Positions 14,442 to 50,801 of a stretch of DNA of 64,000 nt are shown here, piece after piece; within the stretch, counting starts at the first letter, position 1, and each line of letters starts with the position of its first letter. The translations under genes were made by a program, and so were the position numbers. The DNA is from a bacterium. GTDB lineage: Bacteria > Patescibacteriota > Minisyncoccia > Phycocordibacterales > Zambryskibacteraceae. The stretch spans positions 1-64,000 of the forward strand of contig JAUSGI010000002.1 in NCBI GenBank assembly GCA_030649135.1, read 5' to 3'. The notes below the pieces were generated by a model. That model worked only from the letters and a program-made list of their open reading frames with translations, had not been told where the DNA came from and did no database searches.

Positions 14442-14469
14442 CGCTACTATCTTATCATGGTACCAATAT

Positions 14470-18760: not shown

Positions 18761-18800
18761 TATAGGAAAAGGGCCGGCCGCGATGTACTGCGGCCGGCCC
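18761..18800 (-). terminator. Strong GC hairpin terminator downstream of the GC-rich gene 18809..19243
   Basis: gggccggccgc-gatgtact-gcggccggccc is a perfect 11-bp stem, followed on the minus strand by ttttcc. Confidence 0.65.
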
Positions 18801-18808
18801 AGGTTAGA

Positions 18809-19243
18809 TCAGGCGTCCGGGTCGATGGCGTTGGGGCGGTATTCGAACCGCCAGATGGTGACGAGGTTGTCGTCACCGAACGGCTTGTTGTAGATGCCCG
18901 CCAGGTGATTCTTGACCTCCTCCTGGCTCGTGATGTCCGGGGACATACCACGGAGGTCCTCCGCCGTCAGCTCGCTGATCTTCTTCACCAGATACTCGGT
19001 GACCTCGACGTTGGTCCCGTCATCTGGGAAGAACTTGGCCGCCACGCCTCGGGCCTGGTCGCCAGGCACCTCGATGTAGCGCACGAGGATATTGGTGAAC
19101 CGCGGGATGCCGGTGGGCTTGGTCGGGTCGGAGCGATCACCGGGTCTCACGACCGAGGTGATCGTCTGATCTTTGAAGCCCTGCATGTGCTCCACTCGGA
19201 CCCAGAGTCCGGGCTGGCCATACTCCACGTTTCGATCCAGCAT
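18809..19243 (-). CDS. Hypothetical protein encoded on a GC-rich (~60%) island
   Basis: Clean 144-aa ORF (MLDRNVEYGQPGLWVRVEHMQGF...). Its composition contrasts sharply with the ~40% GC flanks. No recognisable motifs. Confidence 0.45.
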   Translation of the reverse strand: MLDRNVEYGQPGLWVRVEHMQGFKDQTITSVVRPGDRSDPTKPTGIPRFTNILVRYIEVPGDQARGVAAKFFPDDGTNVEVTEYLVKKISELTAEDLRGMSPDITSQEEVKNHLAGIYNKPFGDDNLVTIWRFEYRPNAIDPDA

Positions 19244-19315
19244 GAAATCCCTCCCCCTTGCTTGATTTGTAACAATTTTACTCCTCGCGTATTATAGCAA
19301 ACTATGTAGAATGTG

Positions 19316-20230
19316 TCAATAGTCTGGAGAATGCTTCATATGCTCATCGTATCCTTCAGGATTAATCCTCTGGTGAGTCTCATTGATTAAATCAAGTAAA
19401 CCTTGTCCGATATCAGTCGATAAATTAGGTATGAGCTTCCTAGCTAGACGAGGTTGGAAGCTGTAACCTGTCATTTGATAGTGCCCGAGATCTCCTTTGT
19501 TTAAAAATTCAATTTCCACTTCATGGTTGAGCATCTCTTTAATCATCATTAGAAGGTCGCGAGACTTGAGTGTCTGGTGACCAGTAATAAGTATGTGTTG
19601 GTTTTCAAATTCTGGTTTGAGTATTTCCACACTTGATCGGGCCGCATCTCTGACGTGAATATGCTCGCGCACTTCTTCCCCTGTTCCGGGATAAGAGATC
19701 TTTTTTTCTTTGATTGCCTGATTGATAAACTTATTGATACTTGAAAGATGATTGGATCGAGCCGGACCATAGAGTGAACCGTAACGCAAAATGGTGAAAG
19801 GCAAGCCATATTGGCGCTGATATGTCTCCGTAATCTTTTCACTGGCTAATTTAGAGTCGCTATAGAAGGCACCGAAACGGCTGTAGGCGTAAACGGAACT
19901 AGCATAGACAAAGCGCTTAGCTCCAGCCTTACGAGCTGCTTCAAGGGCATAGGTATTACCTAAAATATTAACTTTAACGACATCAATTGGATTATTTTTA
20001 GCCACATCAATATCCGCTACGGCAGCAAAGTTGTAAACAATATCGTACCCTTTGACAGCCTTTTCTACCGCCTTCTGGTCAGTGATATCACCTACGATCA
20101 TTTGTTGACCCGGCTTTAAGTATTCCGATTTGGTACGGCCGAATATAACCACGTCGTGCCCTGCTTCAGTCAAAGCATCAGCCACATAACTACCGAGAAA
20201 TCCCCCACCACCAAAGACAATGATTTTCAT
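19316..20230 (-). CDS. NAD-dependent epimerase/dehydratase (extended SDR)
   Basis: N-terminal VFGGGGFLGSYV Rossmann motif; YASSVYAYS and YSDSK (YxxxK) catalytic motif. Confidence 0.8.
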   Translation of the reverse strand: MKIIVFGGGGFLGSYVADALTEAGHDVVIFGRTKSEYLKPGQQMIVGDITDQKAVEKAVKGYDIVYNFAAVADIDVAKNNPIDVVKVNILGNTYALEAARKAGAKRFVYASSVYAYSRFGAFYSDSKLASEKITETYQRQYGLPFTILRYGSLYGPARSNHLSSINKFINQAIKEKKISYPGTGEEVREHIHVRDAARSSVEILKPEFENQHILITGHQTLKSRDLLMMIKEMLNHEVEIEFLNKGDLGHYQMTGYSFQPRLARKLIPNLSTDIGQGLLDLINETHQRINPEGYDEHMKHSPDY

Positions 20231-20234
20231 CTCG

Positions 20235-20984: not shown

Positions 20985-21007
20985 ATTTCTAGATTAGAAT
21001 ATGTATT

Positions 21008-21751: not shown

Positions 21752-21752
21752 G

Positions 21753-23782: not shown

Positions 23783-23787
23783 ACGGT

Positions 23788-24705: not shown

Positions 24706-24722
24706 ATATAGGCCATATTAGC

Positions 24723-25406: not shown

Positions 25407-25419
25407 ACCTAGGAGGTTT

Positions 25420-25965
25420 TTACTTGGTTAACCTAAATACCCCTTCGTCCATAACAAAATCATATCCGTGGGAGCGGGCGGACCTTTTTATTTCCCTTAT
25501 GTCACGCACAGTAAAGTGTCGAGCATCATCGATGAGGACATCGTGTCCTTTAACAGGGTGAGAGAATACTGCATCTAACTCTTGCCGGACAGGCGAATTA
25601 TCAAGATTGAAGGGAGAACCGTGAGCATCTAGCCAAATCAAAGCCGGCTCTTTGACTTCTGCCATTACCTCGTATATTTTCTCCCCGCTATCTCCGTGAT
25701 ACAGATGGATGTTCCTTGCACTGGCAAACATGGCCACTGCCTGATTATAGAGTGTCGGGTCAAGTTCTATTGAATAAATCTCCCTAAAACTATCTTTCAT
25801 GGCAGCAATAGTGTCGCCTCGGTTCGTACCAGTTTCTACAAAGATATTTTTCTTCCCTTTATACGATAGCAATATTTCAACTTTCCGCTCCCCTGTTATT
25901 TTGAGGCCTTTCGCAGGATTTCTAAGACCTACAAATACAAGAATTTTTTTAATATAGTGTTTCAT
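25420..25965 (-). CDS. Class I SAM-dependent methyltransferase (Methyltransf_24/TylF-like)
   Basis: IFVETGTNRGDT glycine-rich loop; IYSIELDP; LIWLDAHG. Start taken at the ATG of MKHYIKK; the track begins at the TTG three codons upstream. Confidence 0.55.
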   Translation of the reverse strand: MKHYIKKILVFVGLRNPAKGLKITGERKVEILLSYKGKKNIFVETGTNRGDTIAAMKDSFREIYSIELDPTLYNQAVAMFASARNIHLYHGDSGEKIYEVMAEVKEPALIWLDAHGSPFNLDNSPVRQELDAVFSHPVKGHDVLIDDARHFTVRDIREIKRSARSHGYDFVMDEGVFRLTK

Positions 25966-25980
25966 ATATAGCAATAATAA

Positions 25981-26850
25981 TTATATTTCTTCAAAATCCA
26001 AGTGTTTTATTTGGCTGAACTGTTCCTCAAGACTACCGAATCTTTTAAGAGTATATGGATTATGATAAAAAGCTTCTTCGGGCGAGACTTCTCTAAACTT
26101 CCCCTGCGCCACATCTCTCCTGACAAAGAAAGCATCAAGGCCATGGCTATCACAGGCTACCAAGTTGTAGCCTTTTTTTATCGCTAATTTTGACAAAGCT
26201 CTCAAAGAAGCGCCGTAATAAAAATCATTCTGATAACGACGGGCCGGATTGTAAGGAATAGTCAAAGAGCGATGGCCCATGGCGGTGTTATATTCCATCA
26301 CTACTACCCTCGGATTAATCACGTTAATCGCTTCCCACACCCAGTAGTCATTACCATCTATATCTATAGAGAGTAGGTCAATTTCACCTCCAATGCCGTT
26401 ATCTTGAAGCAATTGGTTTATATTTTCAGCGGTGACCAAACACGCGGCTACTTTGACCTTATATTCTTGGTAAAAATCCCTGGCCCTTTTTACCCACTCC
26501 TCGTTGGCATCAATCAAGAGTCCATTCCAGCCAAAGTTTCGAGACAAATTCGCGGTATTACATTCTGTGCCGTCTTCTACACCTACTTCCACAAATATAC
26601 AATTAGTCATTCCTATCTTGGAGAAGATGAGAGCCAAGATACCATCGCCACCGTGCTTGGAATAAACTTTAAATTCCGCATTTTTGAAAGCTATTTTTTG
26701 ACTTAAATTGGGGTCGGCTATTCCCTGATAGTAAGTCAAGAACAAGTTGCCCAACCGTTCTTCGAGAATATTAATTTTCTCTGGATAGAAAATGTCCCTA
26801 ATAAAAGCAAGAAGCTGTGGGGGTAGAAACTTTTTAATATAGTGTTTCAT
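25981..26850 (-). CDS. FkbM-like SAM-dependent methyltransferase
   Basis: FVEVGVEDGTECNTANL and IDLLSIDIDGNDYWV resemble the Methyltransf_21/FkbM consensus. Shares an identical MKHYIKK start region with the downstream gene. Confidence 0.5.
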   Translation of the reverse strand: MKHYIKKFLPPQLLAFIRDIFYPEKINILEERLGNLFLTYYQGIADPNLSQKIAFKNAEFKVYSKHGGDGILALIFSKIGMTNCIFVEVGVEDGTECNTANLSRNFGWNGLLIDANEEWVKRARDFYQEYKVKVAACLVTAENINQLLQDNGIGGEIDLLSIDIDGNDYWVWEAINVINPRVVVMEYNTAMGHRSLTIPYNPARRYQNDFYYGASLRALSKLAIKKGYNLVACDSHGLDAFFVRRDVAQGKFREVSPEEAFYHNPYTLKRFGSLEEQFSQIKHLDFEEI

Positions 26851-28063
26851 ATATAGCAATAAGCTTAGCTATTTGAACATTTAAATTGAAGTTTGTTTTG
26901 ATTCTATCTAAACCAGCTTTACCAAATCTTTCTGCTTTTTCAGGATGGTTGATTAAATCAAGCATTTTTTCTGCCACTTCTTTTGTATGGAAAGGATTAA
27001 CCACATATCCAGTGATACCATCCTCAATGATTTCCGGCGCTCCCCCATAGCAAGTGCCCACCACCGGTTTGGCGCAGGCCATCGCCTCAAGCACGATTCT
27101 GGGGAAAGAATCGAAGATAATTGATGGCACCAAGACAAGGTCGGCACAGGCATAAGCAGATTTTATCTCGTCCCTTTCTATCCAACCAGTAAAAATTAGT
27201 CTACCCCCTATTCCCAACTTGTCTGCCGCCTCTTTCATGCTGGCGGCATACCCCTCCATTTTACCCGCAACCAGGAGTACTACATTATCTACTTCCTTCT
27301 CAAGCTCTGCCATCACTTCAAGTGCCTTTCCCCCGCCTTTAGCCTCACTTAACCGCCCACCGAACAATATTACTTTTTTATTTGTTAGATTATACTTTTC
27401 TCTAAATTGGGCTACTTCTTCTCCACTCGTGCGCCACAAATTCACATCAGCTCCGAAATACATCACTTCTACATTTACAATACCATTTTGTTCAAGAGCT
27501 TTTTTTAAGGCACCGCTTACTGCAAAAATTTTGTCCGCGTGTTTGAGATACTTTCTAATGAATAAATTACGAAGGGGATTCCACCTTTTTCTCGCCTGTT
27601 TCAGATGGTCAAACCAAGTTGTATGGGCATCAAAATTTTCCAAATACCGCTTGGTGTGTAGTTTCCCATAATTAAAAGACATGACATCATGAGCAGTCAA
27701 AACCACTACTTTGCTAAACCGCTTCGCAATCACCAGAGTATGGTAAGAGAGGTAGAAGTGAATGTTGTGGGCATGCACTACATCCGGCTTAATGTTCTTA
27801 AGAAGTTTTGCCACTTGGCGTACAACTGGAGGATTGTACAGACCAAGATAGGAACGCCATCTGGTGGAATAATTGCTGGTAATTTTCCAAACTTTTATAC
27901 CATGGTATTCCGATACTCCCGCCTCATCTCTATTTCTACACGTAGTGATCACATAAATCTCGTGACCCATCCTTTTCATGGCGATGGCAAAATCATATGC
28001 GACAATCCCCGCCCCCCCAAAGCTCTGTGGCGGAAAATCGTCTGAAAGAAAGACTATTCTCAT
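26834..28063 (-). CDS. Glycosyltransferase family 4 (GT-B, retaining)
   Basis: MRIVFLSDDFPPQSFGGAGI N-terminus; EGYAASMKEAADKLGI... PRIVLEAMACAKPVVGT (E-x7-E region). Confidence 0.85.
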   Translation of the reverse strand: MRIVFLSDDFPPQSFGGAGIVAYDFAIAMKRMGHEIYVITTCRNRDEAGVSEYHGIKVWKITSNYSTRWRSYLGLYNPPVVRQVAKLLKNIKPDVVHAHNIHFYLSYHTLVIAKRFSKVVVLTAHDVMSFNYGKLHTKRYLENFDAHTTWFDHLKQARKRWNPLRNLFIRKYLKHADKIFAVSGALKKALEQNGIVNVEVMYFGADVNLWRTSGEEVAQFREKYNLTNKKVILFGGRLSEAKGGGKALEVMAELEKEVDNVVLLVAGKMEGYAASMKEAADKLGIGGRLIFTGWIERDEIKSAYACADLVLVPSIIFDSFPRIVLEAMACAKPVVGTCYGGAPEIIEDGITGYVVNPFHTKEVAEKMLDLINHPEKAERFGKAGLDRIKTNFNLNVQIAKLIAIYETLY

Positions 28064-30415: not shown

Positions 30416-30426
30416 TTCGGTTTATT

Positions 30427-33149: not shown

Positions 33150-33153
33150 ACTT

Positions 33154-34056: not shown

Positions 34057-34068
34057 TTACACAATAAA

Positions 34069-35172: not shown

Positions 35173-35184
35173 ATTAATTATAGT

Positions 35185-36138: not shown

Positions 36139-36139
36139 A

Positions 36140-36844: not shown

Positions 36845-36903
36845 ATTATCTTTAAATGGCCAATTTCTTGCTTAGTATATACTAGTGTACTAATATGTAA
36901 ATT

Positions 36904-38124: not shown

Positions 38125-38143
38125 GCCCTATGGATTAAAGGGG

Positions 38144-39729: not shown

Positions 39730-39776
39730 CCGAATATTTTGCTAAGTCTAACAAATCATAGACTTATTAAAAACCG

Positions 39777-39805
39777 TTGACTTTAAATATGTAATATGTT
39801 ATTAT
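39777..39805 (+). promoter_or_regulatory. Sigma70-like promoter: TTGACT, 17 nt, TATTAT
   Basis: TTGACT at 39777-39782 and TATTAT at 39800-39805, about 40 nt upstream of the 39845 start codon. Confidence 0.45.
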
Positions 39806-39844
39806 AGTAAAAGAGTGTAAATCAAGTTTGGGAAAGGACTTCTC

Positions 39845-40603: not shown

Positions 40604-40626
40604 AACGTGTCCAGTAGTGCATCACA

Positions 40627-40667
40627 ATGGCGACCGCAGTAATACACGCGGTCGCCATTTTCACTTT
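40627..40667 (+). terminator. Rho-independent terminator of the GC-rich gene 39845..40603
   Basis: atggcgaccgc-agtaatacac-gcggtcgccat is an 11-bp stem, followed by ttttcacttt. Confidence 0.7.
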
Positions 40668-42372
40668 AGAGAGGCAGGGACAAAATCACAAATCTCCCGT
40701 CATCATACAGGGCCTTGTTTAAAGAGATGCGCTCAAGATTATCGTGAGCACGATCGAGGATGAGATATTTAACGTTAAATTGTTGGAGGAGGGTGGCTTG
40801 ATCTTTTTTGACGGTCTTAAAACGCTCTACCAGCGTTTTGAAATATTCTTCCCCGCGGAGAGTAATCGAATCGGTACGTGGCGGACATTGGCGAGGACCA
40901 GCAAAACGCACCCAAACATCGCAGAGCCAGGCGCGCCGGTTTTGAGCTAGAGGCTCTAGTTCTGACGGCCCGGCGCCAGCGTAAAGCCCTAGACCACTCT
41001 TTATGTCTTCGATCGTCAAAACATCCATGCTATGCGAGACGAGATATCTATCCTCAAGTTCGGGCCCAGAAATATTATGAAGTACCGTACCTTCTGTAAA
41101 GAGTGGGTAGTGCCGAGTCATAATCGGTATATATTCCGAAATTGAATCGTTCGCCCAAATCACAGATTGTTCTGGCACATTTTTATCTAGCCATTTTAGC
41201 GGGCCAGCATAGGTCTGTAGATCGGCGGTATAATCACTACCACGTTCACCAAAAAACTTGAAAAAATCTAGCCCATGAGGAAGGTTTCTCACCACTCCTA
41301 CCGAGAGTATTGAGAGAAGAATCGCTACTACTATGTATTTGGTTCTGTGGGTTTTTAAAGTTTCTGAGAAATACCATTCATACAAACCGACTCCTAAAAT
41401 TATCACCATCCATAAAATGACAAAACGTCCGACATGCACGCCAAGAGTCAGTTCGACGCCAGTAATGATATTTAAACACAAGCTAACGAAGAGTGCCGCA
41501 CCTGTCGAGAACCAAAATACTTTTTGTTTTAAAGGCACCAGCCATGTCAAAAGCATTCCGACTGCCAACCAACGACCATAGAAAAAAACTTCTATCGATG
41601 GAACGCGAGTGTAAACAAGACCAATGCGACTAAGGGTTTCAAAGTAATAAGGGCCCTGCATCTGCATCAAGGTATAGAAACCGAAAGGGATAAGGAGGAG
41701 TGCGGTAAAAATACCGCAGGTCAGAAGCGAGCGTAACTCTTGGAAACGTCTGGTAAACAAAAACCAGAAAAAAATAAAGGCAAAACTTAACAAGACAATA
41801 TAAGAAAGATACGAGTAGACATAAAAGGCAGAAGCCGCAGCGAGCGAAAGCCAAACTATCCTCTTTCTCTCATGCGGCTCGTACAAGAACTTCAGAAGGG
41901 CAATGAGAAACATGAGAAAGAAAGGATAAACTATCTGCATAATGGTCGGCCGAAGCATGAGTGAATATAAACTGATATAGAGAAACACCGACCACAGGAA
42001 TGCCCACCCTCTCGGCAAACGCAAGAGCCGGAGCAGGGTAAAGGACAGAGCTAAAAATACAAAACTCCACGCGAACATATTAATCATAACGGCGAGATTA
42101 AACGGCACCCCAAGAAGCATTGGAATCGCTGAGACAATATCCGGCAAGAAAAACGCTGGAGCCAAATCCTTGCGGTATTCATAGACATACGGATTGCCGA
42201 GGAGCGGGTATCCATCCACCACTTCATGCATGCGCGCATAGTAATACAAACTGTCGGTAGAACCTCTGGGTAAGACGCCCTGCCAGTTTCGCCATCCCCC
42301 AACTTCGTATATGACAAAAATTGCTGGAATTAGTGTGGCCACCAAAGCGACGGCTAGGAACAATTTCTTCAT
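40666..42372 (-). CDS. GT-C-like polytopic membrane glycosyltransferase candidate; paralog of 28060..29808
   Basis: About 12 TM helices plus a C-terminal soluble domain with WANDSISEYIPIMTRHYPLF and QFNVKYLILDRAHD, which match motifs in the 28060 gene. Confidence 0.5.
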   Translation of the reverse strand: MKKLFLAVALVATLIPAIFVIYEVGGWRNWQGVLPRGSTDSLYYYARMHEVVDGYPLLGNPYVYEYRKDLAPAFFLPDIVSAIPMLLGVPFNLAVMINMFAWSFVFLALSFTLLRLLRLPRGWAFLWSVFLYISLYSLMLRPTIMQIVYPFFLMFLIALLKFLYEPHERKRIVWLSLAAASAFYVYSYLSYIVLLSFAFIFFWFLFTRRFQELRSLLTCGIFTALLLIPFGFYTLMQMQGPYYFETLSRIGLVYTRVPSIEVFFYGRWLAVGMLLTWLVPLKQKVFWFSTGAALFVSLCLNIITGVELTLGVHVGRFVILWMVIILGVGLYEWYFSETLKTHRTKYIVVAILLSILSVGVVRNLPHGLDFFKFFGERGSDYTADLQTYAGPLKWLDKNVPEQSVIWANDSISEYIPIMTRHYPLFTEGTVLHNISGPELEDRYLVSHSMDVLTIEDIKSGLGLYAGAGPSELEPLAQNRRAWLCDVWVRFAGPRQCPPRTDSITLRGEEYFKTLVERFKTVKKDQATLLQQFNVKYLILDRAHDNLERISLNKALYDDGRFVILSLPL

Positions 42373-42785
42373 GAGTTTTCATTATGGATGCTATCGGGAG
42401 AAAAAACCAGGTATTTAAACACAAAAAAACTATAGACGGCGACCAGACCGAGAACAAAAAATTGAGAGATTAGGTAATGAATATGAAGCATATCCACACT
42501 TATGTATAGGAGTAAAGCATTAACGCCTAGATTTAAAATCTGAATTCCTAGATAAACGAGAGACTGCTGTCTGATTTTCTCTTTTGTATAGTCGTTGAAA
42601 GTGAAAAACTTCTGCATCATGAAACTCACGGCAACCGCCACGATGAAGGCTACGACGGAAGCCAGCAAATACCACATATAAAAAAAGTGTACCAAGATAA
42701 AAAGCATGGTTAGATTTATAACTGCGGCAGAACCACCGGAGATAAGATAGCGAATGGCGCGATGATTAAGGATGATTTTTATCAT
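42369..42785 (-). CDS. GtrA-family protein (polyprenol-P-sugar translocation accessory)
   Basis: Four-TM ~130-aa protein; RYLISGGSAAVINLTMLFIL GtrA signature. Confidence 0.8.
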   Translation of the reverse strand: MIKIILNHRAIRYLISGGSAAVINLTMLFILVHFFYMWYLLASVVAFIVAVAVSFMMQKFFTFNDYTKEKIRQQSLVYLGIQILNLGVNALLLYISVDMLHIHYLISQFFVLGLVAVYSFFVFKYLVFSPDSIHNENS

Positions 42786-42825
42786 TTGGGTATCTGTAAG
42801 GCGCTATGATAGTATAAACGCTAAG

Positions 42826-43383
42826 ATGATAAAAGAATACCTAGAAAAATCCTTGGCGGTAAAAAATGCCGCGCTGACCGATCAAAGCTTCCTTGAAAAT
42901 GCGGAGAAAGCGGGACGGCAAATTTATGACTCGCTGATGGCCGGTAAACATATTTATATCGCCGGTGTTGGCGGAGCAGCCGCAGAGTCGCAACATTTCT
43001 CCGCAGAACTCTTGGGTAAATACTCTGCGATGAGGAGAGCTTTTCCGGCAGTAGCCTTAACTACCGACTCCTCAATGCTTACTGCTTGGGCAAATGATAC
43101 CAGCTTTGACTTTATATTTTCGCGCCAACTTGAAGGCCTTGGAAAAGAAGGGGATATATTTGTCGCTCTCTCCGCGGGAGGAAACTCACCTTGTATCGTA
43201 GAAGCTCTTAAGACGGCAAACTCTATCGGAATGATCTCCATTGGTCTTTTGGGTAAAAGTGGCGGAAAAGCCAAAGAAATGTGCACCATTCCCATCGTCG
43301 TCCCTTCAGATGTTACTTCTCACATTCAAGAAACCCATCTCATGCTTGTTCACTTTTTCTGCGAATATTTAGAACCGCAGTAA
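42826..43383 (+). CDS. gmhA: D-sedoheptulose-7-phosphate isomerase (SIS domain)
   Basis: GVGGAAAESQHFSAELLGKY, ALTTDSS, FSRQLEGLGKEGDIFVALSAGGNS and VPSDVTSHIQETH align with the GmhA consensus. Start moved to the ATG at 42826 to avoid overlapping GtrA. Confidence 0.85.
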   Translation: MIKEYLEKSLAVKNAALTDQSFLENAEKAGRQIYDSLMAGKHIYIAGVGGAAAESQHFSAELLGKYSAMRRAFPAVALTTDSSMLTAWANDTSFDFIFSRQLEGLGKEGDIFVALSAGGNSPCIVEALKTANSIGMISIGLLGKSGGKAKEMCTIPIVVPSDVTSHIQETHLMLVHFFCEYLEPQ

Positions 43384-43463
43384 ACAAATACTTGACATTT
43401 GCATAGTATACAGATATAATCGGGAAAGAACTCATTCCCCTACACTACAAAAGGAGGGCACAC

Positions 43464-44141
43464 ATGCCCACGATTCTCAAGGCCATTCTTTGTGATGTCG
43501 ACGGAGTGCTCGTCGACACAGAGGGTCTGCATTTTCAGGCGTGGGATTGGATTTGTCGTGATATCGGAGGACAACCCCTCACTCAGGAAGAACACGCTAC
43601 TCTCGTTGGGAAAGACGGGCCAGTCATCATGAGGGAACTTTCCCAGATGAAGGGGTTCGGCGGCGATCTGACCAAACTCAATGACCGTTGCCGAGAGAAG
43701 TACATCGAGTTACGGCAGACTGGGAACATCCCAGTCATCATGGAGAACGTTATGCTTCTTCGTGAGTTTGCCGAGCTGTACTCGGGCTTAAGGTTCGCGG
43801 CTGTTTCTTCCGATACTCACGACCATATTCAGCAGAACCTTCGGGTAGCTGGGCTTGAAAATTTCTTCGAACTGGCAGTTTCCGCCCATTCAGACGGTTT
43901 GAAGAAGAAGCCCGCCCCCGACGTGTGGTTGGTGGCGATGAAGAGACTCGGAGTCGCTCCAGAAGAATGCCTAGCTTTCGAAGATTCACCAGCCGGAGTC
44001 GAATCTGTCACCAGCGCCGGGGTCAGGGTAGTGGCGCTACCCAGCCCCTCAACTGTATCCTGTAGCTTCCCGACCGCTCACACGGTCATCAAACCAGGAG
44101 AAAGGAAAAACGCCAGAGAAATCCTTGCGCGCGTGATGTAG
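43464..44141 (+). CDS. HAD-superfamily phosphatase (subfamily IA, beta-PGM-like) on a GC-rich island; candidate heptose-bisphosphate phosphatase
   Basis: ILCDVDGVLVDTE motif I; S/T motif II; K...AFEDSPAGVES motifs III/IV. Confidence 0.7.
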   Translation: MPTILKAILCDVDGVLVDTEGLHFQAWDWICRDIGGQPLTQEEHATLVGKDGPVIMRELSQMKGFGGDLTKLNDRCREKYIELRQTGNIPVIMENVMLLREFAELYSGLRFAAVSSDTHDHIQQNLRVAGLENFFELAVSAHSDGLKKKPAPDVWLVAMKRLGVAPEECLAFEDSPAGVESVTSAGVRVVALPSPSTVSCSFPTAHTVIKPGERKNAREILARVM

Positions 44142-44151
44142 TGTGCTCACC

Positions 44152-44180
44152 AAGAGCCGGGTCCTGACCCGGCTCTTTTC
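44152..44180 (+). terminator. Rho-independent terminator after the HAD gene
   Basis: aagagccggg-tcctga-cccggctctt is a 10-bp stem, followed by tttc. Confidence 0.7.
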
Positions 44181-44182
44181 AA

Positions 44183-44674
44183 TTACGATTTTTCTTTATA
44201 AATTTTAAGAATCTTTTCTATAATATTTGTCGTCGACTGAACACGGCCAGGAATAATTACCACCTTATCTACATTCTCGCGCACAAAGTCTGCTTGAATA
44301 TTTTGTTCCACAGTATAATCTCCACCTTTAGTATAAATGTCAGGGTGGACTGCTTTCAAAAAAGTGCCCGGGTCTTTTTCATCAAAAATATGAACGTAGT
44401 CGACGCAAGCCAGAGCTGCCACCACTTCCGCGCGTTCACGTTCAGGAATGATTGGACGAAGTTTTGATTTGTATTGTCTTACCGAAGCATCTGAATTTAT
44501 ACCCACTACTAGAATATCACCAAGCAATTTACTTTCTTCTAGAAGTATTTTCTGGCCGATGTGGAATACATCAAAAGCACCGTTGGTAGCTACAATTTTT
44601 TTACCATGCTTTTTGAGTTCCTCGACTCTTGCTTCAAGCTCGGAGAGAGAAACAATTTTGTGAGCTGTTTTCAT
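44183..44674 (-). CDS. D-glycero-beta-D-manno-heptose-1-phosphate adenylyltransferase (RfaE/HldE domain II, cytidylyltransferase fold)
   Basis: IVATNGAFDVFHIGQ (the GxFDxxHxGH motif), INSDASV and YTKGGDY match HldE C-domains. The track's N-terminal extension (start 44845) is implausible; start set at MKTAHKI. Confidence 0.8.
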   Translation of the reverse strand: MKTAHKIVSLSELEARVEELKKHGKKIVATNGAFDVFHIGQKILLEESKLLGDILVVGINSDASVRQYKSKLRPIIPERERAEVVAALACVDYVHIFDEKDPGTFLKAVHPDIYTKGGDYTVEQNIQADFVRENVDKVVIIPGRVQSTTNIIEKILKIYKEKS

Positions 44675-44769
44675 ATCAGACAGTATACAGCTGAAAAAAT
44701 ACTTGACAAGTAGGCTAAATCTATTATAATCAGAAGCAGACACAATCAATATAAACGCGAGGAGAACGT

Positions 44770-45504
44770 ATGAACTTCGCTGAGTTCTGCTCAAAACAAA
44801 GCAGTATCTACGACGACATGCGGAAGCAGGAATGCGAGGAATCACGGATCACAGGGATGATGGAAGATCCCGGGCTCGTCACTAGGAGAGGCGGGTTTTT
44901 TCTCTCCCTCATTCACCCGCCTGAGTTTGCTCAGAAAGTAGCGGATTTCTCCGCCAAGGTTGGCGCCCTGATGCCAGCAATGGTTTACAGCAACAAGGAG
45001 ATACACACGACCGTCGGGTCAATTTCCACTTCGGTCATCCCACACTTCTATTTCGACGGAAACCGTGAGGACCATGCGCACCAGCTTTCCGTCATCGAAC
45101 GCGTGGCGGAGGAGACAGCAAAGAGAGTGAAAGCGGGGGTATGCAAAATTGGTTTTATTACGCCCTGCATCCTTCTGCCGAATCTCATCATCGCGCCGGG
45201 CGAAGCGAATCAGAGCGTCTTCGAAGTGACGACCGCGCTGACCGAATTCGGTACACAGATGGGGTTAGCAATGGCCCCATGCAAAAACGGCCATGTGACA
45301 GTCAACCGCTTCACCGAAGCGAAGAGTGTAGGGGAAATATCCGATATTCTTAGGTTGATGGAGAAGGAGCCACCCTTTGGTGTCAGTCATCCGATCGGGA
45401 TCGCAGCGGGTTACACACTGCGTCACGAATCCGAACGAAATGTTACTGACCTTCGCGAAACACCCGGGCACTTCCACGGCACCAAGTTCTTCCGGTTCCA
45501 ATAA
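44770..45504 (+). CDS. Hypothetical protein on a GC-rich island
   Basis: 244-aa ORF with typical coding periodicity and its own terminator. No motifs recognised. Confidence 0.4.
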   Translation: MNFAEFCSKQSSIYDDMRKQECEESRITGMMEDPGLVTRRGGFFLSLIHPPEFAQKVADFSAKVGALMPAMVYSNKEIHTTVGSISTSVIPHFYFDGNREDHAHQLSVIERVAEETAKRVKAGVCKIGFITPCILLPNLIIAPGEANQSVFEVTTALTEFGTQMGLAMAPCKNGHVTVNRFTEAKSVGEISDILRLMEKEPPFGVSHPIGIAAGYTLRHESERNVTDLRETPGHFHGTKFFRFQ

Positions 45505-45508
45505 AGAC

Positions 45509-45540
45509 GGCCACCTCGAAGTTTGAGGTGGCCTTTTATC
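45509..45540 (+). terminator. Bidirectional intrinsic terminator between convergent genes
   Basis: ggccacctc-gaagttt-gaggtggcc followed by tttt. Confidence 0.65.
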
Positions 45541-45541
45541 C

Positions 45542-46264
45542 TTAATACGCGCTGATGCCATAGCCCGCAGCCTTGGCATCATCGTAGAACATTCGTACTG
45601 TTTCGAGCGAGTAGACGTCGTGGTCCTTGCCGACGAGCGACAACTTCTTGAGGATGTCGTTGGTTGCCGTGATGATGTGACAACCGACGGAGTCGGCCTG
45701 GAAGACATTGAGAAGCTCGCGTGGGCTGGCCCAGATGAGCTCAGCCTTCGGCCTCGCTCTCATGATCTCGACTGCCTGTTGCATTAACGGCATCGGATCA
45801 ACCCCGGTGTCAGCGATACGCCCTGCAAATACCGAGATGATGGCCGGTGTCCCTGGTGAGAGATGCTCGGTCACGGCCTTCACTTGTTCCAGAGTGAGTA
45901 ACGCCGTGACGTTGAGCTTCACGCCAGCGTGCGACAGCCGCTCGATAAGCGGGCCACTCGACTCCCCTGTCGTGTTGGTGACTGGAATCTTGACGTAGAC
46001 GTTATCGCCCCACGAGGCGATGACGCGCGCTTGCGCCTCCATCTCATCGAAGTCGTCAGCGAAAACTTCGAACGACACCGGGCGATCCGAGATAGTGGCG
46101 AGCACTTCCTTGGCAAACGCCTTGTAGTCAGTGACACCCGCCTTCCTCATCAGCGTAGGGTTGGTCGTGAACCCTTTAATGAGGGGGTTCGCGTACATCT
46201 CCTTCATGCCGGTGAGGTCCGCGCCGTCTGCGAATAACTTGATTTTGAGTTCTTGGATGTTCAT
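45542..46264 (-). CDS. Transaldolase/fructose-6-phosphate aldolase family (short Tal type) on a GC-rich island
   Basis: FADGADL, TTNPTL, VKIP (Schiff-base Lys), NVTALLT, SVFAGRIAD. Confidence 0.8.
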   Translation of the reverse strand: MNIQELKIKLFADGADLTGMKEMYANPLIKGFTTNPTLMRKAGVTDYKAFAKEVLATISDRPVSFEVFADDFDEMEAQARVIASWGDNVYVKIPVTNTTGESSGPLIERLSHAGVKLNVTALLTLEQVKAVTEHLSPGTPAIISVFAGRIADTGVDPMPLMQQAVEIMRARPKAELIWASPRELLNVFQADSVGCHIITATNDILKKLSLVGKDHDVYSLETVRMFYDDAKAAGYGISAY

Positions 46265-47226
46265 GAGTTTTTCTCCTTTAAGATTTTCACTAAATCTTTC
46301 CTTCTGGGTGGCATAGTACCATGAATTTTAGTTGAAAGTGCTCCCCAGATATTGGCTATCCTAAGAGATTCTTCAGGTCGGTTTCTATCTCCAAGACTAA
46401 AAGCCGCCAAAAAAGCATCGCCTGCCCCGCAAACATCGACCGCTTTTACTTTATATGGCCGGCTTTTTATATACTGGTCACTAAATATAGCTATGGAGCC
46501 TAGACCACCCAGTTTAACCACAACATTTTTTAGCTTTAACTTTTTCATTATTACCAAAAGAGACTGCTCAGGCTTTTGGAGATTAAACTTAGGGTACACA
46601 CTCTTAGCTTCTTTTTGGTTTAAAAACATCGTGTCTACCCCTTTATATAAATGGTGATTCGAAGGACGGTGAAAAACTTGCACATCGACATGCAAAGGTT
46701 TTTTATATTTCTTACTCATAGCAACAATATTTTTAATCAACTTTTTTGAGAGCATTCCATGCTGGGGGTCCATAATAACAACAACGTCTACATGTGGGGC
46801 ATTAGCTTCCACTAATTTAATTATTTTTTTCTCCAGATCGGAATTAATGTAGTGATTATCAACTTTGTTAACTTGTAGGAGTTTCAGATTTTTGTCATAC
46901 CATCTTCTCTTAACAGTCGTTTTCCGGGTCGGATCTATTAAAAAAATCTTTTTTAATTTTGGATGTGTCCACGAATCATAATATTTCGCATCTTCATCGT
47001 CACCCAAGATGGTAACAAAAGTTACCCTCCCCCCGAGATTTAAAATATGACTGGCAATCAGTCCATTACCACCGAAAAATATTGATGACTTTCTCTCTTC
47101 CATTTCTGGCGCAGGAGCATCAGGAGACAGACCGATAGTATTGCCATAAATATAAATATCCAGTATAGTGTCGCCCACTAGCAACACCTTTTTATCTTTA
47201 AATGACCTTATAATATCTGGCTTCAT
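46261..47226 (-). CDS. D-glycero-beta-D-manno-heptose-7-phosphate kinase (RfaE/HldE domain I, PfkB family)
   Basis: VLLVGDTILDIYIYGNTIGLSPDAPAPE parallels the HldE N-terminus; DVCGAGDAF PfkB signature. Confidence 0.8.
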   Translation of the reverse strand: MKPDIIRSFKDKKVLLVGDTILDIYIYGNTIGLSPDAPAPEMEERKSSIFFGGNGLIASHILNLGGRVTFVTILGDDEDAKYYDSWTHPKLKKIFLIDPTRKTTVKRRWYDKNLKLLQVNKVDNHYINSDLEKKIIKLVEANAPHVDVVVIMDPQHGMLSKKLIKNIVAMSKKYKKPLHVDVQVFHRPSNHHLYKGVDTMFLNQKEAKSVYPKFNLQKPEQSLLVIMKKLKLKNVVVKLGGLGSIAIFSDQYIKSRPYKVKAVDVCGAGDAFLAAFSLGDRNRPEESLRIANIWGALSTKIHGTMPPRRKDLVKILKEKNS

Positions 47227-47250
47227 CCATGGTATAATACACTTTTTGCT

Positions 47251-48027
47251 ATGAAATATAAATCTATTCTTCTAGATGTCGACGGGACACTTGTCGCTGT
47301 CGGACCCAATACAATTCCATCTGAAAGAGTGCGAGAAGTCCTAAGCCATGCCAAATATGTGGCACATGTTTCTCTTGTTTCTGGACGTTGTCTTGATTGG
47401 CTCAAAGAAATCTTTCGAGTCCTTGATTTGACAGCTCCTTCTATTATCAACGGTGGTTCACAAATCATTAATCCAAAAACGGGAGAGATTCTTTGGGAGC
47501 GGCCAATCACGCAAGAAGATGTGGGAAAAGTGCTAAGAATAGTTACAAGAGACGGGATTCCTTTTGTGGTCAGTGACAACGGTATTGAGTATGAGAATCC
47601 ACCCCAGTCCGAATTTACTAATCCCCTTGCTATAAAACTTTCGTATTTTGATTCTAAAGAGAAATCTGACCAGTGTCTAAAGATTCTAGAATCGATACAG
47701 GGTATTTCGGCCCATAAAACTTTTTCCTGGAATAAAGAAAGAAACTACATAATGGATATATACATCACTCATAGAGAAGCCACCAAACATCACGCTGCCG
47801 AAGAATTAGCAAAAATTTTAGGAATTGAAACTCATGAAATGATAGGGGTTGGTGATGCTCGAAACGACGTTCCCCTGCTCAATGTGTGTGGACTAAAGGT
47901 GGCTATGGGTAACGCCGACGACAAACTGAAGAAAATTGCTCATTACATTGCCCCTAGTGTAGACGAGGACGGTGTGGCTCACGTGGTGGAGAAGTTTATT
48001 CTTTCTCAATTGGTCTGTTCTGGCTAG
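47251..48027 (+). CDS. HAD-IIB (Cof-type) sugar phosphatase
   Basis: ILLDVDGTL; SGR; GDARNDVPLL. Confidence 0.8.
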   Translation: MKYKSILLDVDGTLVAVGPNTIPSERVREVLSHAKYVAHVSLVSGRCLDWLKEIFRVLDLTAPSIINGGSQIINPKTGEILWERPITQEDVGKVLRIVTRDGIPFVVSDNGIEYENPPQSEFTNPLAIKLSYFDSKEKSDQCLKILESIQGISAHKTFSWNKERNYIMDIYITHREATKHHAAEELAKILGIETHEMIGVGDARNDVPLLNVCGLKVAMGNADDKLKKIAHYIAPSVDEDGVAHVVEKFILSQLVCSG

Positions 48028-49153
48028 CTTCTTTGAGAGCTTCTACTGCCGCAGTTATAACATCTTCAAGACGGGTGGACTCCGCTATGCGCTCCGCTTC
48101 TTTAACATCGTGATTCCGCGTGTTCATAATACAAAGTAATGGTTTGGGTCCTCCGGGGGGAAAGACCATCTTGTGAATTTTGCCTTGCGGCGGCTGGTCC
48201 CATGGATTAACTGGGCCGAGGATATCGACCGTTGGGATATTAAAGGCTTCAGCAATGTATAGAGGGCCAGTATTGACACTCACAAAAACATCCAGCTTCG
48301 ATATGATCGCCTTTAATTCGTCTATTGATACAGAAGTGGTATCAGTCACCATTGATTTATCCTCGATCGCCAACATCATTTCATTAGACTCGCGTAGGTC
48401 GTTCCTACCGCCAATAACAAAAATATGGACGCTAAACTTTTCGATAAGATGATTCGCTACTTTGGCAAAATTTTTTGGACTCCATTGCTTTTCTTTATTA
48501 CCAGAACCGGCTGCAATACCAACGATATATTTGTATGGTTCACATATTTGAGAAATTATCTCCGCAGCCCTTTTTTCAGCAGTTTCGGAAAAGCCAAGGT
48601 GTTTGGTGGTATCGTCTGTAAAAATACCGAGTGATTCGAGAGCTTTCAATCTTTCTCTGGGAGCATATCCATCCAACTGATGCGGAAAGGTCTTAATAAG
48701 CCTCTGAAGAATTTTATAGGGCCTGGTCACATCATGGGCTACACCTCCCACGGCAGCCGGAGCTATCACTAAGGGAATCCCGGCAAGGTAAAGTAGAGAG
48801 GTGTGTTTAAATGATGGGCCAGTCACTATCGCTACTTCAGGATGATATTTTTTAATACGTTCTGTAGCCCCTTCATCCTCCAGATCAACATATTCATTAA
48901 CCAATCTACTGTCCGACAAAAGTGGACGATGCAATTTAGAATTACCCGCTACGATAATACGCGCTTTCGGTAAGTGCGCTCGAATGGCACGCAAGACTGG
49001 TGTAGCACAGACCACATCGCCCAGTTTACCAGTTGGCACCACCACAATATCGGAAATGCTTTTGGGAATCTTAGTGGCAGTTCCGTGGAAAAGTGCCCTT
49101 ATTAGACATTGGACAAGAAGTAGCATTCTATTGGCTCTATTTAAAAAATCCAT
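47996..49153 (-). CDS. ADP-heptose:acceptor heptosyltransferase (GT9)
   Basis: PTGKLGDVVCATPVLRAIRAHLP N-terminus; IGIAAGSG... VNTGPLYIAEAFNIPTVDILGP C-terminal GT9 pattern. Confidence 0.8.
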   Translation of the reverse strand: MDFLNRANRMLLLVQCLIRALFHGTATKIPKSISDIVVVPTGKLGDVVCATPVLRAIRAHLPKARIIVAGNSKLHRPLLSDSRLVNEYVDLEDEGATERIKKYHPEVAIVTGPSFKHTSLLYLAGIPLVIAPAAVGGVAHDVTRPYKILQRLIKTFPHQLDGYAPRERLKALESLGIFTDDTTKHLGFSETAEKRAAEIISQICEPYKYIVGIAAGSGNKEKQWSPKNFAKVANHLIEKFSVHIFVIGGRNDLRESNEMMLAIEDKSMVTDTTSVSIDELKAIISKLDVFVSVNTGPLYIAEAFNIPTVDILGPVNPWDQPPQGKIHKMVFPPGGPKPLLCIMNTRNHDVKEAERIAESTRLEDVITAAVEALKEASQNRPIEKE

Positions 49154-49216
49154 GTCGTTTTTTATAATTATAATACAAAGTGGGGCGGAGAGCTTGTGAC
49201 TCCCCGCCCCGGTTTC

Positions 49217-50743
49217 TCAAGTAGTTTTTCCGCCCTCCCATCGCGTCCCGATTTCTATCTGGAGACGCTTTCTGCGGTACTCCTCCGAGTTGACGCCAAA
49301 CTCCGCCCATTGTTGCAGTTCCTCGATTCTTTCCGGAGGTACTGTCGTGTTCTTCATGACAGCATTCCTCCAGTTAAAAATATCGGGGTCGAAGTCTTGC
49401 ACCAAGTACCCGTCACGCAGAGCCAAATCATGTAGGTTACTGCCGGGCAGAGGAACAGGGATCTTGAAAGAACAGTAATCTGCCCCCGCACCCACCAGCC
49501 GCCGGCCGAGCTCGATCGAGGACATCATCTCTGCCTCGGTCTCGTCCGGGAAACCGATCATCATGTTGATGGGGCACGTGATACCGATATTCCTCGCAAC
49601 CCTCACCAGCTCGACTACATCGAGTCGTTCATGGTTGAGCTTCCTCGTCGCATGCTGGTCAAGAATGCGCTGGGAAGCTGACTCCACCGGGAAAACGATC
49701 TGTGTGAGACCGCAGTCATAGAGGAGTTGCAGGAACTCTACATCGATGACCGGCTTGCCTCCGACGCTTCCCTTGAGAAAGTGCACCAGATTCACTCCGT
49801 TCACGTCAGCGAGCTTGAGCCCCAGGCCTCGGACTTTCCCGAGAATCTTACGCATCCGCGGCTTGTTGGCCAGGAGCGTATCATCCTCGAGGTAGACTTT
49901 TGTGACACCAAGGCTCTTGAGTATTGAGAGCTCTTCGAACACCCGCGCTTCGGACTTGAAGCGCAACTTGGCGATCCCGCCACTCTCCTCTTCATTTTCA
50001 CTTTCTTTAGAGATGTGGCAGTACGAGCACTTGAAAATACATCCGCGGGATGTTTGCATGTTCCCGGAACGCTCTGGGTCTTTGAGAAAGGCCCTTCCGC
50101 CAGCTGCTTCGGCACGATCGTAATGCATCCAGGGAAGCTTGTGCCATGCCGGGATGGGCAGAGCATCAAGATTAGTGAGCGTATCCCCCACTTGAGGAAA
50201 ACGTCTCACGATTCTCCCATTCTGCATGGTGACTGTTCCAGAGACGGCGAGACTTTCCCCCGCTTCCCAGGCTTGGATGACCTCGACGACCACCCGCTCA
50301 CCTTCGGTATTGCAAATGGCATCTACGCCGGCCGCGAGGAACCGTTTGTGAAGAGCTCGGGCGTTAACGCCACCGGCAATGACCAGGATTTCCGGAGATA
50401 CTGCCTTGGCCGCCTTGACGACTTCAAGTGCCATCCTGTGCTGCGGAGTGAAAATGGAGCTAAGACCGACAACGTTGTAGCCACCACGAGCGATGACCTC
50501 ACTCATCCGATCGGTCGTCATGCCGATACGGGTGAGGCCGTTTTCCTGCATGACAAGCTTGTCGAAGGTGTCTTCAAGCTTGTCATCCGGCGTGCCGACA
50601 TTGGCGTCGAGCAACTCCGACTCAATACCGGCTCGTTCGAGCGAGGCATCGAGATACAAGAGACCGAGCGAACCATCGACACGACGGGCTTCTCTCTTCG
50701 CCAACTGGGTAGGATGGTAAATGAGCAGAGCTTTTGCCTTCAC
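49217..50743 (-). CDS. B12-binding-domain radical SAM enzyme (class B; probable C-methyltransferase or rearrangement enzyme) on a GC-rich island
   Basis: N-terminal cobalamin-binding Rossmann region (VVGLSSIFT... VIAGGV); radical SAM cluster motif RGCIFKCSYCH (CX3CX2C). Confidence 0.8.
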   Translation of the reverse strand: MKAKALLIYHPTQLAKREARRVDGSLGLLYLDASLERAGIESELLDANVGTPDDKLEDTFDKLVMQENGLTRIGMTTDRMSEVIARGGYNVVGLSSIFTPQHRMALEVVKAAKAVSPEILVIAGGVNARALHKRFLAAGVDAICNTEGERVVVEVIQAWEAGESLAVSGTVTMQNGRIVRRFPQVGDTLTNLDALPIPAWHKLPWMHYDRAEAAGGRAFLKDPERSGNMQTSRGCIFKCSYCHISKESENEEESGGIAKLRFKSEARVFEELSILKSLGVTKVYLEDDTLLANKPRMRKILGKVRGLGLKLADVNGVNLVHFLKGSVGGKPVIDVEFLQLLYDCGLTQIVFPVESASQRILDQHATRKLNHERLDVVELVRVARNIGITCPINMMIGFPDETEAEMMSSIELGRRLVGAGADYCSFKIPVPLPGSNLHDLALRDGYLVQDFDPDIFNWRNAVMKNTTVPPERIEELQQWAEFGVNSEEYRRKRLQIEIGTRWEGGKTT

Positions 50744-50801
50744 GGTGTGTTCCCCCCTTGATTTTGGAACGTTTCTTGAAACAGATTAACAGAAATATCA
50801 A

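Follow-up and report, generated by a model that had tools for sequence, protein, structure and literature searches.

The stretch of DNA analysed here (the window, 64,000 nt) carries a cell-surface glycan locus, very probably of a member of the Patescibacteria, in which six GC-rich genes in five segments (islands 1 to 5) stand among AT-rich neighbours. They encode a protein with an ASCH/PUA-like fold, a glycosyltransferase A (GT-A)-like protein, a HAD-IA protein, a 244-residue orphan, a protein of the transaldolase/FSA family (TAL) and a B12-binding radical SAM protein (rSAM). Our data suggest that these six genes of foreign-type composition are probably anciently acquired, insulated, moron-like units in this glycan locus of Patescibacteria (Paceibacterota, which is the phylum Minisyncoccota in current NCBI taxonomy), and that their GC content is maintained by a gene-specific force. 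A sequence-only reading of the window had proposed several independent acquisitions from a higher-GC donor. The foreign affinity of TAL and the gain or loss of single units agree with that proposal, but the units are not particular to this genome and no sign of a common donor was seen. The genes would have entered from GC-richer lineages, as the affinities of TAL demonstrate and as we infer for the other five, before the divergence of a whole group of related lineages; the HAD and GT-like units would have been gained or lost individually later. As a tentative extension, an accessory-gene set in the surface-glycan loci of Patescibacteria might be held at its own higher GC equilibrium, past synonymous saturation, by a gene-specific force, either selection on mRNA or expression or GC-biased gene conversion.

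If this is true, compositional islands can be stable, maintained features and not scars of recent transfer, and these loci offer a natural setting in which the forces behind bacterial GC content can be measured side by side. An atypical GC content is, as a matter of routine, taken for a sign of recent horizontal transfer; here that reading would misdate the events and mis-assign the donors of most of the genes. If non-amelioration holds, AT-rich and GC-rich genes stand interleaved in one operon-dense locus and have cell, replication context and time span in common, but tend to different equilibria of GC content at third codon positions (GC3), which would be a rare natural control for telling selection from biased gene conversion against the universal AT mutation bias. 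The analysis also maps a conserved heptose-type glycan module in bacteria of the candidate phyla radiation, with which three families of unknown function always travel, namely the ASCH-fold family, the 244-residue orphan and a 564-residue neighbour. Our literature searches found no description of this pattern in Patescibacteria, nor of a linkage between transaldolase and heptose.

Composition and layout of the GC-rich genes

The mean GC content of the window is 43.8%, and six coding sequences (CDSs) in five segments are outliers, with GC of 0.53-0.62 and GC3 of 0.60-0.85. Island 1 holds the ASCH-fold gene (YqfB-like, 144 residues; 18809-19243, minus strand; GC 0.618, GC3 0.848), island 2 the GT-like gene (252 residues; 39845-40603, plus strand; GC 0.585, GC3 0.688) and island 3 the HAD gene (225 residues; 43464-44141, plus strand; GC 0.540, GC3 0.597). 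Island 4 consists of the 244-residue gene (44770-45504, plus strand; GC 0.532, GC3 0.637) and the convergent TAL gene (240 residues; 45542-46264, minus strand; GC 0.567, GC3 0.743). Island 5 is the rSAM gene (508 residues; 49217-50743, minus strand; GC 0.552, GC3 0.640). The 53 remaining open reading frames (ORFs) of the window have a mean GC3 of 0.413 (standard deviation 0.055, maximum 0.564), and the six genes lie 3.3-7.9 standard deviations above them. The five segments picked out by the sequence-only reading are confirmed where it had placed them, and base composition and codon usage deviate significantly from the host. In 500-base steps, GC peaks at 0.61 (40001-40500), 0.57 (45501-46000), 0.56 (49501-50500), 0.53 (43501-44000) and 0.51 (19001-19500).

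GC at first and second codon positions is raised in the six genes, as are G and C at third positions, each on its own. The codons CGG, GGG, CCC, CTC, AAG and CAG are commoner, within a general move to codons ending in G or C. The island proteins are enriched in Ala, Arg, Gly and Pro and depleted in Lys, Ile, Asn, Phe and Tyr, and their GARP/FYMINK ratio is 0.95-1.47 against a host median of 0.73. This codon and amino-acid signature matches that of GC-rich genomes. The changes in GC are sharp: in 50-base profiles they fall at gene ends, and the five segments match the limits of CDS plus terminator within about 25 bases.

The layout of the segments is that of transcription units. A scan of both strands of the 64 kb for TTGACA-N16-18-TATAAT, in which sites are consensus matches, found only three sites scoring at least 11/12. 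All three are perfect (12/12), and a GC-rich gene begins 39-47 nt downstream of each. The predicted promoter of island 1 (19291..19319, minus strand) is TG-extended with a spacer of 17 nt, and a GGAGG Shine-Dalgarno sequence stands just before the ATG. The second perfect site precedes the HAD gene (43392..43420, plus strand), and the third, before the 244-residue gene (44703..44730, plus strand), lies inside the 5' end of a divergent cytidylyltransferase ORF. The sequence-only reading had missed these three; the one promoter it named, TTGACT-N17-TATTAT before the GT-like gene (39777..39805, plus strand), is a TG-extended 10/12 match and appears to be real. GGAGG-type ribosome-binding sites precede all four genes with predicted promoters. 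TAL and rSAM have no consensus promoter of their own. The start of TAL and the stop of the PfkB gene share ATGA at 46261-46264, where the GC jump also falls, and TAL is translationally coupled to PfkB.

All five segments, and not only the three for which it had been noted before, close with a GC hairpin and a T-tail (-20 to -29 kcal/mol), among the strongest predicted terminators of the window. A strict scan of both strands, which required a perfect stem of 8 bp or more with 6 or more GC pairs and a T-rich tail, found only three hairpins in the whole window, every one at the 3' end of an island. The island 1 hairpin (18771..18800, minus strand; 11-bp all-GC stem then TTTT, -28.7 kcal/mol) stands between the ASCH gene and the co-oriented gene of the 564-residue protein (17050-18744). 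Those of islands 2 (40626..40659, plus strand; 12-bp stem then a T-run, -23.5 kcal/mol), 3 (44152..44177, plus strand; -21.4 kcal/mol) and 5 (49182..49210, minus strand; -25.6 kcal/mol) each follow one gene, and in island 4 a single bidirectional hairpin (45509..45533) serves the convergent 244-residue and TAL genes. The hairpins are unrelated in sequence, and a repetitive extragenic palindrome family was rejected. From this layout of promoters and terminators, four of the genes would therefore be promoter-ORF-terminator units and two the terminator-closed ends of host operons. Work summarised in PMC6427688 reports changes of promoters after gene replacement; we would guess that the consensus promoters may offset the codon mismatch of these genes.

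The NCBI annotation gives 125 residues for the gene at 18809-19243 and 215 residues for that at 44770-45504, with internal ATGs as starts in both cases. We used the longer ORFs, whose starts closely follow a strong Shine-Dalgarno sequence and whose homologues align end to end.

Conservation and substitution pattern

Positionally conserved orthologues of all six genes occur in related lineages (loci L007, L009, L035, L013, L002 and others). The nearest named genomes with the locus are Candidatus Parcubacteria (L012) and Candidatus Paceibacterota WC_11 (L013); the latter is syntenic with the window, with host-type genes 52-81% identical. L007 and L009 (both 44% GC) are sequence-identical to L008 and L010, respectively, each pair coming from two independent samples. 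In L007 and L009, GC is 0.554 and 0.558 for rSAM, 0.550 and 0.508 for TAL, and 0.546 and 0.514 for the 242/244-residue gene, against 0.37-0.46 for neighbouring genes. The HAD orthologue is 72% identical in L009 (GC 0.532) and 70% in L035 (GC 0.494), and the GT-like orthologue of L009 is 61% identical (GC 0.590). As a test of patchiness, rSAM, TAL and the 244-residue gene are present in L007, L009 and L035; the sole absences are those of the HAD and GT-like genes in L007, which indicates that units are gained or lost singly. The pattern is weaker in L035, whose neighbouring genes are 58-78% identical to those of the window: HAD (0.494), a 246-residue gene (0.514) and TAL (0.481) stand against 0.36-0.45. 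In L013 (GC3 0.318 +/- 0.051), TAL (0.449) and rSAM (0.426) are the two GC3-richest of 21 genes.

The regulatory signals are conserved with the genes. The promoter of the 244-residue gene is kept as 12/12 in L007 and 11/12 in L009, that of the HAD gene is kept in L009 and L035, and the L009 orthologue of the GT-like gene has an 11/12 promoter. The stem of the terminator shared by the 244-residue and TAL genes is identical in L007 and L009. In 354 kb of the window and its relatives, 12 of the 16 near-perfect promoters with a downstream ORF precede these GC-rich families, a count that is illustrative only, as the loci were chosen for containing them.

The ASCH-fold gene extends the pattern to more distant loci. 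Its family (about 143 residues) forms 16 clusters in 5.8 billion proteins, from such loci only, and the gene lies directly upstream of the 564-residue gene in 13 loci, among which the 564-residue protein is 48-61% identical. Copies 40-55% identical to that of the window are, in nine AT-rich contexts (39-46% GC), 0.13-0.20 richer in GC than their flanks, and in contigs of 53-57% GC the gene has about equal absolute GC. An 11-12/12 promoter 42-69 nt before the gene (as in L002, L020, L023, L024 and L026), a Shine-Dalgarno sequence and a strong hairpin accompany nearly all copies. Only one copy (L004/5/6) is clearly operonic; its start overlaps the upstream gene, and it has no promoter and a host-like GC3 of 0.44. 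Beside this copy, on the opposite strand, lies a 359-residue orphan (L004 10521-11600, minus strand, the same as L005 4890-5969; GC 0.564, GC3 0.67, no Pfam family) in a relative of 47% GC.

The divergence of the island genes is that of their surroundings. Identity to the window in L007 and L009 is 61-91% for island proteins and 62-93% for neighbours. Synonymous divergence (dS) between the window and L007 is 0.3-0.7 from rSAM to a 568-residue gene and saturated in the next block, and between the window and L009 it is 1.0-2.5. rSAM and the 244-residue gene have low dS equal to that of their AT-rich flanks; the Cof-type HAD gene (1.93 between the window and L007) is an outlier in the low-dS block. 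The presence of all six genes in relatives, with the divergence of their neighbours despite synonymous saturation, therefore points to old, stably maintained units and not to fresh imports. A recent timing is contradicted, given orthologues at the same positions, dS of about 0.5 to more than 2 and GC3 at equilibrium, and the syntenic loci, in which related lineages carry the same genes, promoters, terminators and GC excess, tell against it as well.

Whether the GC excess is decaying was judged from synonymous changes at the third positions of codons whose amino acid is conserved; the changes were polarised by parsimony. On the branches of the window and L007, with L009 as outgroup, the island genes have 87 changes from G or C (S) to A or T (W) and 71 from W to S, on 486 S and 218 W sites. 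This corresponds to an equilibrium GC3 of 0.65 (confidence interval (CI) 0.58-0.71; 0.60 without TAL), where the current value is 0.69. Host genes polarised in the same way have 97 S-to-W and 132 W-to-S changes on 409 and 686 sites, with an equilibrium GC3 of 0.45 (CI 0.39-0.51). The W-to-S fraction in the islands is 0.45, compared with 0.27 expected under the host spectrum (p = 8.5e-7). With two agreeing outgroups (L009 = L035) the equilibrium is 0.72 for islands and 0.43 for host genes (p = 5e-11), although changes on the shared stem are counted twice there. On the independent L009 branch, it is 0.69 and 0.39, respectively (p = 4e-4). Eyre-Walker is said to have found in 1998 that parsimony in skewed sequences overestimates changes from common to rare states. 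Such a bias would mimic amelioration of the islands and therefore works against the result.

Equilibria of 0.65-0.72 for the islands and 0.39-0.45 for their neighbours indicate that the islands are not ameliorating. On modest counts and by a simple method, they evolve as they would under a GC equilibrium of their own, and to read a GC island as the scar of horizontal transfer is therefore insufficient. Island synonymous sites tend to a GC3 of about 0.65-0.7 and those of neighbours, over an equal time in the very same genomes, to about 0.4-0.45, which argues for a gene-specific GC-favouring force. Candidate forces would be selection on mRNA or expression of these units, which are predicted to be strongly transcribed, and GC-biased conversion through repeated cassette exchange.

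Protein origins and competing explanations

The family assignments made from the sequence alone hold, with a weak GT2 match, HAD_2, TAL_FSA, B12-binding plus Radical_SAM domains and two proteins without a Pfam match. Thousands of proteins are 78-84% identical to TAL, a TAL_FSA protein; those with a named source come from Rhodocyclaceae and Sterolibacterium (Betaproteobacteria). In the Sterolibacterium locus (L011, 57% GC), TAL stands beside GmhA-, GmhB- and HldE-like genes and a B12-radical SAM gene, and all other genes of the window are 23-33% identical to their counterparts there (27-32% for heptose-pathway genes). The TALs of the window, L007 and L009 are one clade (83-85% identical), with 65-67% identity to the syntenic TAL of L013 and 57-63% to TALs of Taylorbacteria and Saccharibacteria. 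By these affinities, TAL is a clear xenologue and the only island gene with a well-supported foreign origin; they indicate one old transfer from a proteobacterial-type pool to the ancestor of the clade.

rSAM matches PF02310 (2e-15) and PF04055 (7e-13) and has CIFKCSYC at residues 235-242. An N-terminal B12-binding domain together with a CxxxCxxC core is what defines class B (cobalamin-dependent) radical SAM proteins, to which rSAM belongs by its sequence. Its sole PDB sequence match is AprD4 (E = 2.5e-5). In all named Patescibacteria relatives the GC of the rSAM gene is a little above that of the flanks (+0.05 to +0.14), and a donor, if any, could be another, GC-richer member of the Patescibacteria. 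The HAD protein (HAD_2 in Pfam, HAD-IA, with a DVDG motif) is beta-phosphoglucomutase-like and is predicted to be a sugar-phosphate phosphatase. The GT-like protein has a DDS motif and a Glycos_transf_2 match (E = 0.0024) that falls below the cut-off; its family has 722 representative clusters, with a best identity of 54% outside the clade. Plasmid records are uninformative on donors: the best identity there is 40% for rSAM (in Azospirillum) and 34% for HAD, and the GT-like protein has no relatives among them.

The 244-residue protein has no Pfam and no PDB profile match. Its family consists of 5 clusters in the same 5.8 billion proteins, in this clade only, and its AlphaFold2 (AF2) model has a pLDDT of 38. 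A 2H-phosphoesterase identity, for which two invariant His-x-Thr motifs are the only basis, is not claimed. The island 1 protein had no Pfam match at E <= 0.01. Its AF2 model (pLDDT 86.9) gave, among the top 10 Foldseek matches in the PDB, only ASCH, YqfB and DUF984 proteins, the best being YqfB and ASCH with a target template-modelling (TM) score of 0.74. As modelled, it has the PUA-like beta-barrel fold of ASCH proteins. Compared with ASCH proteins and E. coli YqfB, an N4-acetylcytidine amidohydrolase, the predicted fold matches PDB 9kyf/9kyh, 1t62, 3s9x and 2z0t (target TM 0.66-0.75), but identity is 12-15%, the protein is about 40 residues longer than YqfB, and it always adjoins, in glycan loci, the 564-residue protein without known family.

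Several observations weigh against our interpretation of anciently acquired and maintained units. By sequence affinity, only TAL is demonstrably foreign. The closest named relatives of rSAM are Patescibacteria (76, 73, 58, 56 and 55%), the top ones Parcubacteria/Paceibacterota; the affinities of the island proteins expected by the sequence-only reading were thus found for TAL, while rSAM groups with the host lineage, which speaks against acquisition of that gene. The ASCH, 244-residue and GT-like proteins have no close relatives with a taxonomic label. The ASCH and 244-residue families have no known GC-rich donor, and these genes, like rSAM, may be native but compositionally odd. The promoters and terminators are predictions from consensus matches only, and the link between promoter and GC content is imperfect, as TAL and rSAM are GC-rich yet promoter-less. 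The substitution test, with the double counting mentioned above, draws on a single clade and 100-240 inferred changes, and it uses parsimony where dS is about 0.5-1.5. The dS of TAL between the window and L007 is 1.75, against 0.47-0.73 for its flanks. Across related loci, identities of the ASCH gene and the adjacent 564-residue gene are incongruent (r = -0.51); with a second marker gene, r = +0.47 and is not significant. The ASCH incongruence and the high dS of TAL are compatible with continued replacement over maintenance in place.

These last points lead to recurrent cassette exchange, in which homologous recombination with a GC-richer pool (Patescibacteria of 50-57% GC, or Proteobacteria) would replace the units again and again and leave them no time to ameliorate. 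The locus is indeed a recombination mosaic, with low dS in one block and saturation in the next, and TAL and the Cof-type HAD gene are dS outliers inside the low-dS block. The anti-correlated ASCH identities and the presence/absence variation of HAD and the GT-like gene also fit, and family members occur in L021 and L026, whose contigs have 53-57% GC, and on contigs of Taylorbacteria and Saccharibacteria with 50-53% GC. However, no near-identical donor copy of any of the genes was found in the 5.8 billion proteins, the 244-residue family is confined to this clade, and rSAM and the 244-residue gene share the low dS of their flanks yet show GC-favouring substitutions. We regard recurrent exchange as unlikely.

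It is quite improbable that this genome made several recent independent acquisitions from a higher-GC donor and that the GC excess is an un-ameliorated scar. Such an origin would account for the strong compositional contrast with its GC-rich-genome codon and amino-acid usage, for the roughly 80% identity of TAL to betaproteobacterial homologues and for the lack of HAD and the GT-like gene in L007. It is at odds with orthologous positions of all six genes in relatives, with divergence equal to that of neighbours and synonymous sites at or near saturation, with a single clade of TALs in the window, L007 and L009, with co-conserved promoters and terminators, and with a GC3 that shows no decay. 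No protein more than 55-61% identical was found outside the clade for the ASCH, GT-like and 244-residue proteins. Hallmarks of mobility were not found at the borders: no repeat family pairs them, no integrase is annotated among the ORFs between 4 and 63 kb, no structured RNA or tRNA was detected there (Rfam gathering thresholds, ARAGORN), and there is no tRNA gene in the window. The nearest Y1 transposase genes are at least 6.6 kb past the last island. A phage origin was rejected, as scans of IMG/VR gave no relatives of the ASCH family or the GT-like protein and the neighbours are glycan-synthesis genes.

Equally poor prospects attach to the view that the genes are native and highly expressed, their GC-rich codons being an expression-linked bias without horizontal transfer. 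Perfect promoters, strong Shine-Dalgarno sequences and strong terminators would suit it, as would the property being kept across the whole ASCH family, the host-like GC3 of the operonic, promoter-less ASCH copy and the wide occurrence of the rSAM family in Patescibacteria. But the codon shift is general to G- or C-ending codons, including CGG, GGG, CCC and AAG, with no selective preferred set, and GC1, GC2 and amino-acid composition are shifted too. Classic translational selection as sole cause was rejected, because the shift is general rather than tRNA-like. TAL resembles its proteobacterial homologues more than it does the copies of other Patescibacteria, and the genes of SecA, Obg and GatB have a GC3 of only 0.44-0.49. 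A phosphatase, a radical SAM enzyme and a glycosyltransferase would also hardly be expected among the top-expressed genes.

An assembly or binning chimera, with reads of co-occurring GC-rich organisms stitched into an AT-rich contig, has sharp GC boundaries and nothing else in its favour and was rejected with next to no doubt, since the same DNA occurs at 100% identity in an independent Logan assembly, L007/L008 and L009/L010 each come from two samples, the boundaries lie at functional signals (Shine-Dalgarno sequences, a 4-bp start/stop overlap, terminators) and the orthologous architecture is found in at least 6 other lineages.

Glycan locus and comparison with known systems

The anciently acquired units that we favour are set in one cell-surface glycan locus (12-57 kb), with gatB, obg and secA on its flanks. 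It contains Wzy_C, a flippase, a polysaccharide deacetylase, several GT2, GT4 and GT9 glycosyltransferases, DegT aminotransferases, epimerases, a CMP-sugar-type cytidylyltransferase, methyltransferases and GtrA. Around islands 3-5, an AT-rich host framework (42772..49153), found as the same block in L007, L009, L013 and L035, comprises a SIS/GmhA-like isomerase (42772-43383, plus strand; SIS_2), the cytidylyltransferase-like gene (44183-44674, minus strand; CTP_transf_like), the PfkB sugar kinase (46261-47226, minus strand; PfkB), the Cof-type HAD gene (47251-48027, plus strand; Hydrolase_3) and a GT9 heptosyltransferase (47996-49153, minus strand; Glyco_transf_9). At the level of Pfam families, SIS_2, PfkB, CTP_transf_like, HAD_2/Hydrolase_3 and Glyco_transf_9 thus all lie within 42.7-49.2 kb. 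A known nucleoside diphosphate (NDP)-heptose module consists of GmhA, HldA or HddA, GmhB, and HldC or HddC with a GT9 heptosyltransferase. By analogy with GmhA, HldA, GmhB and HldC, the isomerase, kinase, nucleotidyltransferase, phosphatase and GT9 set would be an NDP-heptose route. In this route TAL may supply sedoheptulose-7-P and the island 3 HAD protein may act as the sugar-phosphate phosphatase, while the rSAM, GT-A-like, ASCH-fold and 244-residue proteins may modify or decorate the glycan. The earlier suggestion that the island genes add steps around heptose synthesis fits this context. In L007 (12482-13615, minus strand) and L009 (12892-14046, minus strand), a gene of 377 and 384 residues without Pfam family replaces the SIS (GmhA-like) gene of the window, L013 and L035, and therefore the heptose block differs in its first step between close relatives.

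Other features of the window were noted. Three large conserved proteins have no Pfam or NCBIfam family, the 564-residue protein (17050-18744, minus strand), one of 582 residues (28060-29808, minus strand) and the 568-residue protein (40666-42372, minus strand), which always follows GtrA. The 5' ends of the Wzy_C/TPR gene (12393-14441, minus strand) and the flippase ORF (14341-15741, plus strand) share about 100 nt; the Pfam match of the flippase starts only at residue 69, and its GTG start has therefore probably been placed too far upstream. A 38-nt direct repeat, 95% identical (25940-25977 and 26825-26862), lies in the start regions of two adjacent minus-strand genes, encoding a 184-residue protein and an FkbM-type methyltransferase. 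Just past the glycan locus are two genes with a Y1 transposase (IS200-like) domain (57353-58195 and 62692-63360, both plus strand; GC 0.36 and 0.33), and a homologue lies at the edge of the related locus L035 (457-1071). At the left end, an open frame of at least 1415 residues (1-4250, minus strand) runs off the window and, being truncated there, is not among the listed ORFs; positions 1000-3000 have strong GC and AT skew.

Compared with known NDP-heptose modules, the window likewise has, at family level, a SIS isomerase, a PfkB kinase, a cytidylyltransferase-like gene, HAD phosphatases and GT9, and it shares with the Sterolibacterium locus the occurrence of TAL and a B12-radical SAM gene together. 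It differs in that kinase and nucleotidyltransferase are separate genes and in that the predicted phosphatase is HAD-IA/beta-phosphoglucomutase-like and not of the GmhB type. The series of single-gene units with a 3' palindrome is also seen in integron cassettes. Here, however, the units carry their own predicted promoters in mixed orientations, and the palindromes are unrelated GC hairpins with T-tails, terminators rather than attC. An integron origin was rejected, as there are no attC-type sites and no integrase among the annotated ORFs; the borders gave no sign of a transposon either.

Compositional islands in O-antigen and capsule loci are usually AT-richer than the host and are expected to approach its composition by Lawrence-Ochman amelioration. 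The units share with them the atypical GC and codon usage in a polysaccharide locus, one gene of foreign affinity (TAL) and a mosaic locus. They differ in being GC-richer than the host, in being single genes bounded at CDS ends, in lacking border tRNA genes, integrase and repeats, in being common to diverged relatives and in not ameliorating. The units fail most tests for a recent genomic island, namely mobility hallmarks, patchiness (except for HAD and the GT-like gene) and amelioration.

In structure, the units appear closest to the phage 'morons', which Juhala et al. (Hendrix) reportedly described in 2000 in HK97 and HK022. As in morons, a single ORF lies between a sigma-70-type promoter and a factor-independent terminator, with a composition unlike that of its neighbours; four units here have this predicted form, by consensus only. 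The placing is also the same, with the HAD and GT-like units standing between genes that are adjacent in L007. Unlike morons, the units here are chromosomal and outside a prophage, neither TAL nor rSAM has its own consensus promoter, and translation of TAL is coupled to that of a host gene. Whereas morons belong to phages, these units have glycan genes as neighbours and are kept across deeply diverged lineages.

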